Shown piece by piece: positions 6,561 to 41,359 of a DNA stretch of 64,000 bases (position 1 is the first letter of the stretch; every line of letters begins with the position of its first letter). Position numbers and translations under genes: made by a program. Source of the DNA: Candidatus Thorarchaeota archaeon (GTDB lineage Archaea; Asgardarchaeota; Thorarchaeia; Thorarchaeales; Thorarchaeaceae); assembly GCA_046482545.1 (NCBI GenBank), contig JAWOEX010000019.1:8243-72242 (forward strand). The letters are read 5' to 3'. The notes beneath the pieces are model-generated. The model was not told the origin of the DNA and made no database searches. It was given only the letters and a program-made list of their open reading frames with translations.

Positions 6561-6613
6561 ATTCGGGCATTTTTTCAAATCTGATTTCGTGTGATTTCTT
6601 GTCTAGCTCAGGA

Positions 6614-6895
6614 TATAACCTGTCTCTTACAGCTGTAGCAACTGCTTGAAACTTCTGTGTTCCGCCCTTCTTCTGCCAGCGTTACCGCCCCCAAGATACC
6701 CGTAGGCCCTTGAGTCAGCAGGGGCTTCGGCCGCGTGCTTCGTGACAGAACACTAGCCCCCTTCTCTAGTCCTGCTGGGACGAAGTTCCGTACTGAGCCT
6801 AACAAACTCCCCTCGTCTGTGGTCAGGAAAGGAGTTGCAGGAAATCTTACACTGCTCTACCCTGGTTGTTTAGGATTCTGTAAGCTCTTGGTTAT
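6614..6895 (-). mobile_element. Copy 1 (internally deleted, 282 bp) of a non-autonomous structured-RNA element
   Basis: Reverse complement aligns with the 5' and 3' parts of 22073-22633 and 40595-41187; flanked by TCAGGA direct repeats (6608-6613, 6896-6901); imperfect TIR ATAACC-N5-CTTACAG at both ends. Confidence 0.85.
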
Positions 6896-7051
6896 TCAGG
6901 AAACCTACATTTAATATTGTTAAGGTGATAGCTCTGTGTTAGAATACCCAAATGTGAAGTAGGTATCTTGGTCGTAGAAACCTAACTTCACAGCAAGGGA
7001 CAGAATAGAAGTTAACAAAAGTATTAGATTGTTCGAAGATGGAGGTTTACT

Positions 7052-7885: not shown

Positions 7886-8914
7886 CTACTGAATGGCCAT
7901 AGTAAGAGCCATCAATGCTTTCTGTACGTGCAGCCTGTTTTCAGCAACATCATAGACGATTGATTTAGCACCGTCAACCACTTCGTTGGTGACCTCTGAG
8001 TTCCTGTCGACTGGACCGCAGTGTGTGAAGAAGGCATCATTGGTTAGCTCCATTTTCTCACTATCGCAAATCCATGCATCATACTGAGCTGCTTGTTCTA
8101 TTTCTAGTTGCTTTGCTTTTTCCACGCCATGTTTCTTTACGCGATCATAGAACTTGGGGGACATCCAATTCCGTGAATAAACAAAGTCTGCATCCTTGTA
8201 AGCCTCTTCCAAATCATCGGTAACTTCAAAATCGGAATCGGCTTCATCCGCATTCTCTTCGCACCACTTCATGACCTCGGGGTCAAGGTCATAGCCTTCC
8301 GGGCGAGCAAGAGTTACATCAAGCCCCAGTCTGCTGTTTATCAAAATGCTCTCCTGAACAGAACACCATGATCTGACAAGGGCACCCTTTCCCCAGACTT
8401 GCAGTATCTTCTTACCCTTCAAATCTTCGCCAGCATGTTCTCTCATACCCATAACATCTGCAAGTCCTTGACATGGGTGGAACCTATCATGAGCCATGCT
8501 TATGATTGGGACGTCTGCGTACTTCACATATTCCTCAAGTAAATCATGCCCCTGACCGTATTCTTCAATGGCAGTCTCAAGGATACGTATACCTATTCCA
8601 GCTGCGTATCTACTCATAACATTAGCTGCATCCTGAACCGTCTCCCCCGCAGATTTCTCAGTCTTGAGACGCATTGTCTTTGGTGTCAAGAATTGAGCAT
8701 GTCCACCTAGTTCGGTAGCGGCGCATTCGAATGATTGCCGAGTTCGGACGCTGGGATTATAGAACATCATGAAAAATGACCTGTGGTCCAGACAGTTATT
8801 CAGCCTATGATCAAAACGTTTGGCTTTCAACTCCTTGGCCAATTCCAAGGTCTTCTCTATTTCATCAATACTCCAATCCTGCGTGCAAAGCAGGTCACGA
8901 CCGTAGAGACTCAT
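7886..8914 (-). CDS. Ornithine/N-acyl-ornithine carbamoyltransferase-family protein (divergent paralog)
   Basis: PSVRTRQSFE, HPCQGLAD, HCGP (canonical HCLP), AENRLHVQKA. Confidence 0.88.
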   Translation of the reverse strand: MSLYGRDLLCTQDWSIDEIEKTLELAKELKAKRFDHRLNNCLDHRSFFMMFYNPSVRTRQSFECAATELGGHAQFLTPKTMRLKTEKSAGETVQDAANVMSRYAAGIGIRILETAIEEYGQGHDLLEEYVKYADVPIISMAHDRFHPCQGLADVMGMREHAGEDLKGKKILQVWGKGALVRSWCSVQESILINSRLGLDVTLARPEGYDLDPEVMKWCEENADEADSDFEVTDDLEEAYKDADFVYSRNWMSPKFYDRVKKHGVEKAKQLEIEQAAQYDAWICDSEKMELTNDAFFTHCGPVDRNSEVTNEVVDGAKSIVYDVAENRLHVQKALMALTMAIQ

Positions 8915-20970: not shown

Positions 20971-22098
20971 ATGTCAACAGGTCAGACCCTTCAAACCCAG
21001 ATTCATGTTGACCCGGTCCAAGGTAAGAAAGATATCAGGCTTTTTACCCCGCCGGGCATCCTTATCGAATCTCGTAGATATCCTACTGTTATAGCCAGCG
21101 TATTGGCATCATCATCCCCCTCCGAGCATATAGCTCTCTTTAATCATCCGGAGTCCTGGGAAGGACTCGACAAAACTACTATTCTCTCGATGAGGAGACG
21201 CTTGTATCGCTTGCAGATTCCCCTCAATGCCAGACGTATGGAACCATATGAAGCCGTGCACAAACTCCACCAGATAGCCCTGAGTGTCTCGCCTGTCGCA
21301 GTAGAGATAAGAAGTCAGGGCCTTCCTCATTCTAACTTAGTTACAAACCCGGGACAACTACCATGTGGGACAGAAGTTCCTGCTGAATCACTTGAAATCA
21401 TATCAAATACAGAAACCAGCAGAGTCGCAAAAACAATAACCGAGAAAGATATTCCCGCTGCACAGGGAGTTTGGCAACTACTTGAATACGACTATTCACT
21501 TGATCAAGCGGCACGTCTCATGGCGGTAGGTCTTCTCGGGAAGATTGGAAACCGAAGAATCATCACAACCCGTGGGGCATACAAAGCGGCAATTGATGCT
21601 TTCATTGGCCGAACAATAATTGAGCTAGCTGAAAGACCGTTGGCAAATAGAAGAACAGTATTCTCTGCCAACTTGTTCAACGACGATTTCACTGTGTTCC
21701 TACAGCCAGGTGAGCCAGCAGTTGACTACGTGAGAATGGATATCAGGCCATCGGGCACAAGTCAAGGATATTCATTTGAGCGAGAAAATGGTTCCGCTTC
21801 TGATGCCAAGTCCTCACTTTACGCTGACCATGCCCGATACTCAGCTTACAGGCATCTCTTAGCAAATCAGCTGAAAGCACATATTACGATTTTTCACTGC
21901 TCCAAAACACCTAGGAATAATCTTCTGGGTCCATGGATTGCTAGAGCTGGTGTGGAGAAAGCGCTTTCATCAGGACCCAGACGTGTAGGTACGGGTCAAT
22001 CGGATTCAGATCTTCTCAACGGAATCCTTTCACCAAACTTGAAAAAATGGACTCACTCGCTTCCGTTCAAGAATAGGCAAGTTTTACAAAAATCCTAA
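20971..22098 (+). CDS. Divergent Nre-family paralog; C-terminus supplied by the inserted element
   Basis: TPPGILI..RYPTV, PESW, MAVGLLG...RRIITT, LGPWIAR align with NreA at 57204 (SPPSVFVGEHGYPKV, PDLW, SVGLLG...RRLVPT, LGVWRFR). Confidence 0.75.
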   Translation: MSTGQTLQTQIHVDPVQGKKDIRLFTPPGILIESRRYPTVIASVLASSSPSEHIALFNHPESWEGLDKTTILSMRRRLYRLQIPLNARRMEPYEAVHKLHQIALSVSPVAVEIRSQGLPHSNLVTNPGQLPCGTEVPAESLEIISNTETSRVAKTITEKDIPAAQGVWQLLEYDYSLDQAARLMAVGLLGKIGNRRIITTRGAYKAAIDAFIGRTIIELAERPLANRRTVFSANLFNDDFTVFLQPGEPAVDYVRMDIRPSGTSQGYSFERENGSASDAKSSLYADHARYSAYRHLLANQLKAHITIFHCSKTPRNNLLGPWIARAGVEKALSSGPRRVGTGQSDSDLLNGILSPNLKKWTHSLPFKNRQVLQKS

Positions 22099-22633
22099 AG
22101 AATCCGAGTGGAAGAGTGTAAACTATCTGTAAGAGTTCCTGTAAGTGCTACTGTGACCGAGGGCGATAGGACTTTATTAGGCCCAGTAAGAAATTTCGTT
22201 TCAGTAGGACTAGGCAAGTGGGCTAGTGGTGTAACACGACGCACGCGGCCGAAAGCTGCAAGGAAGACTCGTTCTTCTAAACAGAAGTCCCCACTCTCCA
22301 AACAAGGGGCCTCATCGAGCTCTGGAGAGTCCGCGGCTGTTCACCTTGTCCGTAATGGACCTCCTCAGTTACGGCGACAAGGCTGAGGTGGGTGATCATG
22401 ACCACGCCGTGGTAAGAACTGTGGAAGACCTCGCTGTCGCCGGGAGTGTGACCCGGACAACGACAGGAGACAGAAGCCAGGACCGCAGGAGGAATTCCAT
22501 TCCGATGAACGCGGACAAAGCCCCTGCTGACTCACGGAGCCACTGGGTAACCTTGGGGGCGGCGACGCTGGCAGGGGAAGGGTGGAACACAGAAGTTTCA
22601 TGCAGTTCCTAGAACTGTAAGAAATGGGTTATA
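22073..22633 (+). mobile_element. Copy 2 (full length, ~561 bp) of the structured-RNA element
   Basis: Flanked by TCAAGAA direct repeats (22067-22073, 22634-22640); left end ...TTACAAAAATCCTAAA, right end CTGTAAGAAATGGGTTATA; colinear with copy 3. Confidence 0.87.
22200..22620 (+). ncRNA. Putative large structured RNA inside the element (family not recognised)
   Basis: Stem-loops conserved across copies with compensatory or G-U-compatible changes; no reading frame is conserved between copies. Confidence 0.6.
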
Positions 22634-22663
22634 TCAAGAAAAGGAGGTAGTTGCCGATTCCAT

Positions 22664-22696
22664 GAGAGGGTGCTCATTGTGATTGAGCACCCTTTC
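22664..22696. terminator. Hairpin between convergent genes
   Basis: GAGAGGGTGCTCA-ttgtgat-TGAGCACCCTTTC. Confidence 0.65.
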
Positions 22697-39529: not shown

Positions 39530-41292
39530 ATAGGTTCCAATAATGGCAACTGCTATCATTATGGCTATCACAACTGTAAGTCCCGGGAGATTATAGGGGG
39601 AAAGGCAAAACCCCCAACTGCTGGTCCAATTAGCATACCAGAGCCGAAGAAAATGCTATGCACTCCCATGGTAGCACCCCGTGTTTCTTCCTCAGACACA
39701 TCGGTAAGATAAGCCATGGATGCTGGTGGTATATACCAGCGAGATATCCAAGAGCTGGTAGAAGCGGCCATTTCGACCAAAGTGCGCTGATATTATCAGA
39801 ATTTGCTAGCAGCAGATATGCAAGCACACCAAAACCCAAGAGACCGCTAATAATGAATGGCCGACGTTTTTTCAAGCAATCGGATAGATACCCATGGCGA
39901 TGATGCCCAGAAGCAAGGCTCTTCTAAGCATTCCGAACAGAATTATGAACTCGATGGCTGTGATGTAGAATTCGCTTTCGATAATACGCTGAGCATATCC
40001 AATGAGAAGACCGTACATTGAAATGATTGGCACGTAGAATAGTATCATCTTCTGAATTCTGCGGTCACTAGCTACTTCTTTTACAAGATCTGAAACACTC
40101 ATTTGGACTTGAATATCCGTTCGGGTTTCCGAAAACCCGATATTTGCTATGAGTCCGCTAATAAGACAGGCTTAACCTGTAATTCCCAGAATGAGAACCG
40201 GCATGAAACCAAACTCCAGCAGAATGGCTCCCATTCCATAACCACTGATGAGCCCCATCAGTGTTGAAAGATTGTAATAGCTCATGAGATTTGCCCCATT
40301 GTCCTTCGCTGACATGTCTCGTATCATAGATAGGGCTGTTGACCCCTCCCAAGCGGCTCCTAAACCAAAGATGACTGATGCAATCAAAAGAATTGGGACG
40401 TTCGGAGTAAAAGCAAAGCTAAGTGCAGCAAATCCCGTTATGAAGAGGCTTGTAATCAGAATGGGGTTTCTTCCGATTTTGTCACTATATGATCCGAAGA
40501 ATGAGACTGACGTCAATTCTGCTACGGGATAGACTAGCATTACTGCTGCTATCTCCAGCACATGTGTTCCTCCACCCATGTATGAAGAACTCTGGAGTGC
40601 TCGGAATTTTACAAAATCCTAAATAAATCGGCACATAGAAGTGTAAGATTTCTGTAAGATGTGACGTGAACCGATGGACCCGTCCAAAACGGTGTGTTTA
40701 CCTTCTCTCTTCTCGAGCACTAGGGGGCTCTATTCCCTGCAGTACGAAACAACTCTACAGTAGGACTAGGCAAGTGGGCTAGTGCTCTGTCACGAAGCAC
40801 GCGGCCGAAACCCTAAGAGAAGACTCTGCTTCTCGACGGAAGTCCTCACTCTCCATACAGGACCTTCATTCAAGGTCCGGAGAGTCCGCGGCTGTTCACC
40901 ATGTCCAGACGGACCTCCTCAGCGGCGGCGACAAAGCTGAGTCGGGTGATCATGACCACGCCGTGGCAAGCACTGTGGAAGACCTCGCTGTTGCCGGGAG
41001 TGATGACCCGGGATGACGACAGGAGAAGGAAGCCAGGACCGCGGGAGGAATCCCATTCCGGTGAACCCGGACGAAGCCCGTGCTGACTCAAGGGTCTACG
41101 GGTATCTTGGGGGCGGCGGCGCTGGCAGGGGAAGGGTGGAACACAGAAATTTCATGCAGTGTACGCAACTGTAAGAAACAGGTAATGTGAATTACTGCGA
41201 TACTGATGTAGAAGGATGCCCGTACTATGATAGTGAATGTGTAAAGTGCAATGAGATTCAGGGTATGTTCTGAGGATTTAAGGCCTCTTCAT
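39530..41292 (-). pseudogene. MFS transporter pseudogene, frameshifted and split by element copy 3
   Basis: Fragments in different frames: TM1 LNLIALYTFTIIVRASFYISIAVI (about 41190-41260, GGAG RBS and ATG 41292), GSYSDKIGR motif A (40172-40579), SDCLKKRRPF, AYLTDVSEEETRGATMG. The 3' end is approximate. Confidence 0.85.
40595..41187 (+). mobile_element. Copy 3 (full length, ~593 bp) of the structured-RNA element, inserted in the MFS gene
   Basis: Colinear with copy 2; removing 40593-41187 restores the in-frame ...YISIAVIQSSSYMGGGTH...; flanks TCTGGA / TGTGAA. Confidence 0.87.
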
Positions 41293-41359
41293 TTAATCTC
41301 CTGTTTCTGCTCGTGTGAATCACTCTCTTTTTATAAGCTCTGGTTAGACTACGCTTACC

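Follow-up and report, generated by a model that had tools for sequence, protein, structure and literature searches.

The question raised by contig JAWOEX010000019.1 of a Candidatus Thorarchaeota archaeon is how a block of non-coding DNA without a transposase gene came to stand at three places within 64,000 nucleotides, and what its long structured RNA is for. This stretch (the window below; contig positions 8,243 to 72,242) belongs to a genome of 3.05 Mb that is 98.9% complete (G000). Our data indicate that the block is in good probability a gene-less, non-autonomous derivative of a Thorarchaeota aCas1-TnpB transposon, working by the mechanism set out below. Its RNA of about 430 nt very probably acts as a scaffold of the TnpB nuclease, and a giant Cas1-like protein likely mobilises the element in trans, by an exchange matched at a short core and not by target-site duplication.

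The three homologous blocks reported in the original prediction are present where it placed them, with the left- and right-end motifs it described, and copy 2 lies exactly between two TCAAGA hexamers (Table 1). "Three-copy" proved far too low a count: BLAST and profile searches gave 105 element matches in G000 (35 kb summed, or about 1% of the genome), 32 of them end-to-end and many truncated, and a family-wide RNA profile gave 86 RNA matches, 46 of them near-full. A typical copy of about 565 bp consists of a left end, a TATA-like box, the RNA and a right end, flanked by TC-NN-GA hexamers. By profile search the RNA part is present in 54 of the 86 genomes of the same family and absent from all 16 genomes searched outside it; gene-less copies with other ends and other promoter-like boxes were found in further genera.

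A longer copy with open reading frames (ORFs) between the same ends, which the original prediction had proposed to look for, does exist. Two complete elements of 8,232 and 8,302 bp in G000 share their ends with the small copies, and the left-end region of copy 2 is 80-99% identical to the left ends of the 8.2-8.3-kb autonomous copies. Full elements carry the gene for a giant protein and a divergent tnpB, whose 3' end overlaps the ~430-nt RNA reaching the right end. Several family matches start at model position 156, and the ORF of 544-623 aa upstream of them encodes TnpB: its product passes the Pfam cut-off for PF07282, its best NCBIfam match is guided_TnpB, and the best Foldseek matches of its structural model are Cas12f and TnpB (E 6e-15). 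Residues D243, G346, E404 and D438 are invariant among 24 sequences. The RuvC-II Glu is replaced by Gly (G346), and an alternative Glu (E404) lies 58 residues downstream, compared with about 45 reported. A RuvC rearranged in this way is active in other TnpBs and Fanzors (PMC10530073), and by its residues the present protein appears to fit this type (TnpB2/RII-r). Close TnpB relatives occur in 55 of the 86 genomes of the family, and the giant ORF lies divergently upstream of tnpB at 39 of 65 loci. At one place in G000 (C28:236500-237200; L038), an AsnC/Lrp-like helix-turn-helix N-terminus is apparently joined in frame, as a fusion, with the RuvC half of TnpB.

The giant protein (1,365-1,963 aa in G000) has no sequence match in Pfam, PHROGs or PDB; its sequence shows a PD-(D/E)xK-like motif and a degenerate P-loop. 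A structural model, covering only its first 494 residues (predicted local distance difference test, pLDDT, 57; predicted template modelling score, pTM, 0.40), was aligned by VIA with seven Cas1/casposase structures, casposase 6opm included, over 140-177 residues at Z 7.0-8.6; this is the only recurring family with such coverage among the VIA matches. A Cas1 fold is moderately supported by this model, and the Cas1-like E/H/D residues are invariant. No IS110, Y1 or serine recombinase was found among the parent-element proteins. In another Asgard family (G208), two elements (L211, L212) have a giant protein and a divergent tnpB with weak RNA traces (E 0.003-0.005); perhaps they are the second group of Altae-Tran et al. 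2023.

Loci of this kind have been described computationally as the aCas1-TnpB loci of Asgard archaea (Cas1H-Asgard-1/-2) by Altae-Tran et al. 2023 (PMC10691335), where aCas1 is credited to Makarova et al. 2020. As presented in the main text of that paper, they resemble ours in a TnpB beside a Cas1-like giant protein, in end repeats and in the motif GTTCACTCA downstream of tnpB. The notion of an undescribed element has therefore to be given up, its parent in the same genome matching these loci down to GTTCACTCA, which in the parent elements follows a variable stretch and in the three window copies is deleted. Neither gene-less copies nor precise ends are reported in the main text of PMC10691335, and the same holds for the TC-NN-GA core, the length and fold of the RNA, the transposon-adjacent motif (TAM) and the upstream small RNA.

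The RNA had been taken to be about 560 nt long. It is structured as proposed but shorter: the first ~130 bp of copy 2 lie outside it and consist of the end repeats of the DNA and a promoter-like box. The RNA begins at the GLG codons near the end of the TnpB nuclease domain and extends to the right end. It is about twice the usual omega-RNA length, typical TnpB scaffolds having 150-200 nt and that of ISDra2 231 nt (PMC13639567). Contrary to the claim that no reading frame is conserved, its first ~250 nt can be read in copies 2 and 3 as the C-terminal tail of TnpB (67-93% identity), with a frameshift in each copy. A decayed coding sequence thus accounts for the origin of this part of the RNA but not for its conservation: variability in the overlap is flat over the three codon positions (0.20/0.23/0.21; nuclease core, 0.16/0.16/0.39), which argues for constraint on the RNA, and on this ground constraint on the protein encoded by the overlap was rejected.

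In an alignment of 104 sequences, ten helices, including a guide-adjacent pseudoknot, exceed the maximum helix score (57) of ten tree-based null alignments with column rates kept, a custom null that gives support at the helix level. Among the top 20 covarying pairs, 17 are base-pair compatible, compared with a background of 16%. Most of the stems listed in the original prediction are supported by covariation among the 104 relatives (ACTCTCC/GGAGAGT, CTCAG/CTGAG, CTGT/ACAG and the CCCCTGCT/GGCAGGGG domain), but ACTAG/CTAGT is not a family-wide stem; in its place GGACT pairs with AGTCC, with a helix score of 43, under the null maximum. The pseudoknot joins an internal TGACC to the terminal GGTYA and shows compensatory changes to TGAAC:GTTTA (gene-less lineages, other genera) and to TGATC:GATTA and CGACC:GGTCG (other lineages). 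Single copies fold no better than shuffles (z -1.0 and -0.8), so that the structure rests on covariation and not on energy. Covariation and stem constraint agree with the earlier suggestion of selection on an RNA from this strand.

Whether selection also acts on the gene-less copies themselves can be judged from their promoter-like boxes and their private changes. In nearly all of them a TTTATTAG-like box, degenerate in copies 1 and 3, precedes the first helix by 34-36 nt; the tnpB coding sequence has no such box at the corresponding place. In the gene-less families of other genera the box differs and stands about as far from the RNA, which suggests that such families arose repeatedly. Private changes reach 4.3% in stems and 8.9% elsewhere, and those in stems keep pairing in 55% of cases (36% expected); all 65 pair positions tested in copy 2 are intact. 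The alternative is a passenger RNA, the gene-less copies being recent deletion products or gene-conversion mosaics whose structure is inherited and not selected. Some copies are indeed 91-96% identical to autonomous RNAs, the relationships of left ends and RNAs are discordant, many copies are truncated, and unsampled parents could explain the stem-preserving changes. The boxes of both kinds, one absent from tnpB and the others at a similar distance in other genera, speak against this alternative, as do the pair positions, of which 96% are intact at a mean identity of 77%, and the compensatory pseudoknot change in a gene-less lineage; we hold it to be quite unlikely. Other observations touch on the derivation of such copies. 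At L030 (G022:C49) tnpB is deleted and the start of the small RNA described below runs straight into the long RNA, which may be a further way in which gene-less copies arise. In G000, a deletion derivative of intermediate size (1.8 kb; C28:70475-72285) joins fragments of the giant gene and tnpB, and one autonomous copy has a second left end in its interior (C20:236240).

A second RNA of the system is predicted immediately upstream of tnpB. At nearly all loci this place has a TATA box and a hairpin of ~70 nt ending in RGGTYAG, followed by 12-15 nt in which the TATA region of the same locus recurs. This guide of the small RNA matches its own promoter at at least 13 of 14 positions in 33 of 54 loci (0.24 after permutation), and the match persists at variable positions and fades beyond 15 nt. 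TTMAT precedes the target copy and not the guide copy; the T at -4 and that at -1 do not vary among 43 loci. TTMAT is the predicted TAM of this TnpB. Short autorepressive guides to the effector's own promoter are known from CRISPR loci, and a guide to the own promoter next to TTMAT follows their pattern.

The small RNA is also complementary to the stretch of the long RNA that ends in GTTCACTCA, own partners reaching -20.4 kcal/mol and permuted partners -18.4 +/- 0.24 kcal/mol, and the duplex shows clear compensatory changes between loci. The variable stretch before GTTCACTCA behaves like an anti-repeat of 11-14 nt and covaries with the small RNA. In the main text of PMC10691335 this stretch is suggested to be the guide; in view of the complementarity it is better read as an anti-repeat. 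In the lineage of G000, the repeat follows the anti-repeat in cis; in the window copies the loop is reduced to a short hairpin, which would make them a natural single-guide form. Variable stretches around GTTCACTCA and right-end guides match targets in their own locus at chance level, and for guides read from the right flank no TAM-flanked target was found in G000 beyond chance, the runs of 9-10 nt being as in controls and three 22-nt matches being self-matches. Further places in G000 (C38:60510 (-), C34:44623 (-), C38:49793 (-), C28:231809-231860) have small-RNA cassettes standing alone and a tiny palindromic element built of two right ends; no TAM-flanked target was found for two of the guides there.

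Another catalytic or recombinase-guiding RNA, such as a self-splicing intron (IStron) or an IS110-type bridge RNA, has to be considered at this point, both having been named in the original prediction beside the omega RNA. The size of 430 nt and the multi-domain long-range pairing are ribozyme-like, and many copies lie inside genes. However, no sign of either was seen: Rfam has no match to the window at E 1 or to the element even at E 10, on which basis group I/II introns and IStrons were rejected; the parent lacks the recombinase types listed above; and copy 3 is in antisense orientation to its host gene, which is itself decayed. The position, the pseudoknot and the anti-repeat fit a TnpB scaffold, so that of the RNAs originally offered the omega RNA appears to be the right one, and any other kind is very improbable.

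The ends of the element speak for a protein-directed exchange. TGTAAGA motifs occur at both ends, and TGTCAGA at both ends in three other genera, a concerted change expected for predicted binding sites of one protein. All intact copies are bounded by two TC-NN-GA hexamers, with at least nine values of NN. The left core matches TC..GA in 39 of 48 copies and the right core in 29; NN is the same on both sides in 34 of the 48. NN moreover tracks the left-end subfamily over different sites and genomes (20 of 28 concordant; 6.9 after permutation), which a duplication of host DNA would not predict, and the core therefore looks matched and not simply duplicated. Copy 3 minus one hexamer is collinear with the empty site in two relatives (G001 and G002). 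In its right hexamer, both differences fall at third codon positions of the host gene, as do 20 of the 34 flank differences. Together with the better fit of left hexamers to the consensus, this makes the left hexamer most likely the element's own and the right one a target in the host, selected for its match to the left one. To the left of the core the host sequence favours R-A-W (26 of 68 sites; 6.7 expected), and none of the 68 has T at -3 from the core (19.9 expected). A protein preference is a simpler explanation of the missing T than TAM avoidance, because the right ends themselves read GTTAT.

These sites bear directly on classical homing, in which TnpB in trans would cut the empty donor site and recombination would restore the copy, as in the palindrome-associated transposable elements (PATEs) of the IS200/IS605 type, the six-base repeats being ordinary target duplications. 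PATEs frequently code for an omega RNA that depends on TnpB supplied in trans (10.1101/2023.03.14.532601); the guide would read into the right flank, the RuvC residues are intact and the stems are under selection; in a register shifted by one base, left flanks show MAT at 8 of 68 sites (3.0 expected); and the TAM was taken from the repression target, so that a looser cutting TAM is conceivable. On the other hand, the TAM, so defined, occurs at 0 of 87 left flanks (0 of 68 in a second count), T stands at the invariant TAM position in none of the 68 sites, and duplication would not make NN follow the subfamily. As the empty sites lack this TAM, we find it unlikely that the gene-less RNA works by ordinary homing.

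Equally doubtful is RNA-assisted transposition in cis, where TnpB with the copy's own RNA would bind the right junction, or a circle-junction guide would help to pick a matching core, and the Cas1-like protein would be recruited. It would explain why gene-less families with different ends retain the whole RNA and a promoter-like box, why a near-TAM (GTTAT or TTTAT) precedes the guide at right ends, with the end as near-TAM and the flank as protospacer, and why tnpB stays with the giant gene; a guide derived from the junction would also account for the inheritance of NN. Yet the identity of left end and target past the core is not significant (0.35, compared with 0.30; p 0.09), targets have no TAM, and the near-TAM is accounted for by the pseudoknot and core alone. 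Copy 1 has lost ~280 nt, including a pseudoknot partner, by a deletion whose junction is identical to that of the copy at G000 C22:210909. The two stand at different sites, so the centre of the RNA is probably not needed in cis for movement.

We thus return to core-matched exchange, for which the following mechanism is proposed. The giant protein, with its Cas1-like catalytic domain, PD-(D/E)xK-like nuclease motif and degenerate P-loop, would bind the TGTAAGA repeats, release the element in trans and join it at host RAW-TCNNGA sites whose NN matches the left hexamer of the element; the earlier idea of an Asgard mobile element mobilised in trans would in this way be borne out. In full elements, the 3' anti-repeat of the long RNA would pair with the separate ~70-nt small RNA, whose guide of 12-15 nt would steer TnpB to its own TATA box beside TTMAT, where it would bind and not cut, and so repress its own gene. 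In the gene-less copies, the repeat and anti-repeat would be fused to a natural single guide reading into the right flank. Abundant gene-less scaffolds could then load TnpB in trans, compete with the repressor guide and raise expression of the mobilising genes. This competition is the role that we favour for the gene-less RNA, although weakly and at less than even chances. A stronger combined claim, that a Cas1-fold/nuclease fusion moves DNA by core-matched exchange at TC-NN-GA, that the 430-nt scaffold works both split, for autorepression, and fused, with a flank guide, and that the fused RNA made by each gene-less copy is needed for its mobilisation, we regard as improbable; it would amount to RNA-assisted transposition by an element uniting Cas1 with a Cas12 ancestor.

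Several observations weigh against this account. Only 1-10 single pairs, depending on the null, pass a strict pair-level test of covariation. TnpB scores below the NCBIfam guided_TnpB cut-off (72-92 and 100 bits, respectively). Foldseek found no match for the N-terminal model of the giant protein, the VIA Z-scores fall in a range rated ambiguous for helical models, and the underlying model is modest at pLDDT 57. Whole left and right cores are identical in just 24 of 48 copies, some of the mismatches perhaps being later decay. Related loci are not independent, so that the permutation p-values overstate the case, and competition for TnpB would be a shared benefit that selects weakly on single copies.

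Table 1. Coordinates of the three copies in the window and of the parts of copy 2 with its flanking cores
Feature	Position	Strand	Description
Copy 1	6608..6901	(-)	288 bp; TCCTGA core at either end (6901-6896, 6613-6608); ~280 nt of RNA deleted internally, junction near 6728
Copy 2	22073-22633	(+)	
Left core hexamer TCAAGA (TC-NN-GA)	22067..22072	(+)	Probably element-derived
Left end	22073..22146	(+)	One inverted and three direct TGTAAGA-like motifs (22117, 22128, 22140; 11-12 bp spacing); putative transposase binding sites
Promoter-like segment	22147..22202	(+)	TTTATTAG box at 22173, 34 nt ahead of the first conserved helix of the RNA; predicted
Long RNA	22203..22632	(+)	~430 nt; predicted omega/tracr-like scaffold of TnpB; ~250 nt at its start stem from the 3' coding tail of tnpB
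Pseudoknot 5' strand TGACC	22399..22403	(+)	Pairs with GGTTA 22627-22631; helix score 66, null maximum 57
Hairpin GCAGT/ACTGT	22602..22618	(+)	Putative fused, shortened anti-repeat:repeat duplex (single-guide form); GTTCACTCA of the parent deleted
Right end	22616..22633	(+)	TGTAAGA motif and GGTTA; two additional bases ahead of the core in copy 2
Right core hexamer TCAAGA	22634..22639	(+)	Probably host target; predicted flank-derived guide starts here (about 22633-22652)
Copy 3	40591..41191	(+)	595 bp core to core; cores TCTGGA (40591-40596) and TGTGAA (41186-41191)

The two-base right-end variant of copy 2 occurs in 5 of 65 right ends. Copy 2 is inserted in the final codons of an Nre_N-domain gene (20971-22098, +), to which the left end of the element gives a new C-terminus and stop; relatives differ over the last nine or so residues. 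A near-perfect inverted repeat at 22661-22696, 22 bp 3' of copy 2, is likely a host terminator between convergent genes. Copy 3, whose left 70 bp match those of the autonomous copy at G000 C20 with 98.6% identity, interrupts a minus-strand gene of a major facilitator superfamily transporter and is antisense to it. The flanking halves (40172-40579 and 41192-41330, -) give only 173 aa when rejoined, so that this gene must have a further break. Elsewhere, a lineage of full elements ends beside a tRNA gene of the opposite strand: tRNA-Gly TCC (L096, L122, L127, L134, L140) or tRNA-Arg TCG (L103, L130). Most of the tRNA-Gly-adjacent elements are without the cis repeat and RGGTYA, and their long RNA would need a separate guide. 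In other elements (L051, L073, L083, L085, L187; L099, L102, L053, L136; L141, L157, L186) RGGTCA is followed by a fixed or tRNA-like sequence or a palindrome and not by random flank; tRNA-directed guides or old target remnants are possible explanations.

The element shares features with several known systems; on the features tested it is not an IS200/IS605 or IS607 element, a casposon or an intron. Like TnpB omega RNAs (reRNAs, right-end RNAs) and PATEs (Meers et al., 10.1101/2023.03.14.532601), its RNA overlaps the 3' end of tnpB, reaches the right end and has a guide-adjacent pseudoknot; a T-rich TAM and gene-less copies retaining the RNA are further likenesses to PATEs, and gene-less omega-RNA elements as such are already known from IS200/IS605. 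In contrast to both IS200/IS605 and PATEs, its RNA has ~430 nt, its own promoter-like box and a dual-RNA mode, it has no Y1 transposase, and its TAM is uncoupled from the insertion site. The sole Y1 gene of G000 (C24:6134-6874; L137), apparently frameshifted or fused to an unrelated membrane-protein gene, is unlinked to element ends, and no recurrent Y1 gene stands beside the 65 tnpB loci; as the predicted TAM is also not 5' of the left end, membership in IS200/IS605 was rejected.

IS607 elements have short phased direct repeats at their ends and a matched core rather than a duplication. Phased end repeats, a matched core and Gly for the RuvC-II Glu are likewise found here, IS607 combining a serine recombinase TnpA with a TnpB of rearranged RuvC. 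In contrast, G000 has no serine recombinase (no match to PF00239) and likewise no tyrosine recombinase was found in it, the TC-NN-GA core has a variable NN where IS607 has a fixed GG, and the TAM is T-rich and not G-rich. IS607 membership was rejected on the missing PF00239 match, the lack of a serine recombinase in the parents and the missing fixed GG core. Casposons carry a family B polymerase and long terminal inverted repeats and make a 14-25-bp duplication. Their likeness to the present element is a Cas1-fold protein as the likely integrase, as far as the model goes; unlike them, it lacks a DNA polymerase and long perfect terminal inverted repeats, and its core has six bases. With no polymerase ORF in full elements and with such a core, casposon membership was also rejected.

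The small RNA resembles tracr-L, CreR and crRNA-like autorepressors, which are short guides to the effector's own promoter next to a protospacer-adjacent motif or TAM, and the pairing of an anti-repeat in the long scaffold with a repeat in the short guide RNA resembles the split-RNA intermediates of TranC. Unlike in all of these, no CRISPR array was seen at the loci, the effector is a transposon TnpB, and split and fused forms coexist in one element. In the openly accessible literature aCas1 is proposed as a transposase of a new family, and we found there no test of it and nothing on TnpB together with Thorarchaeota. Beyond the published accounts, the present analysis would add the length and fold of the RNA, a core passed on with the element, a guide with a split and a fused mode, and a TAM that is not coupled to the target, as predicted from comparison of the loci.

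The gene-less copies are of practical importance for a test of aCas1, since they supply exact ends, a natural donor of 290-570 bp, the target consensus RAW-TCNNGA and the rule of NN matching; they also predict the TAM (TTMAT), the guide register and the scaffold of TnpB. A Cas1-fold integrase together with a TnpB that has a split tracr/cr-like pair for self-repression would bear on the origin of type V CRISPR systems. Here TnpB appears to be kept where homing seems impossible, and the element, at 1% of the genome, also reshapes Asgard genes.

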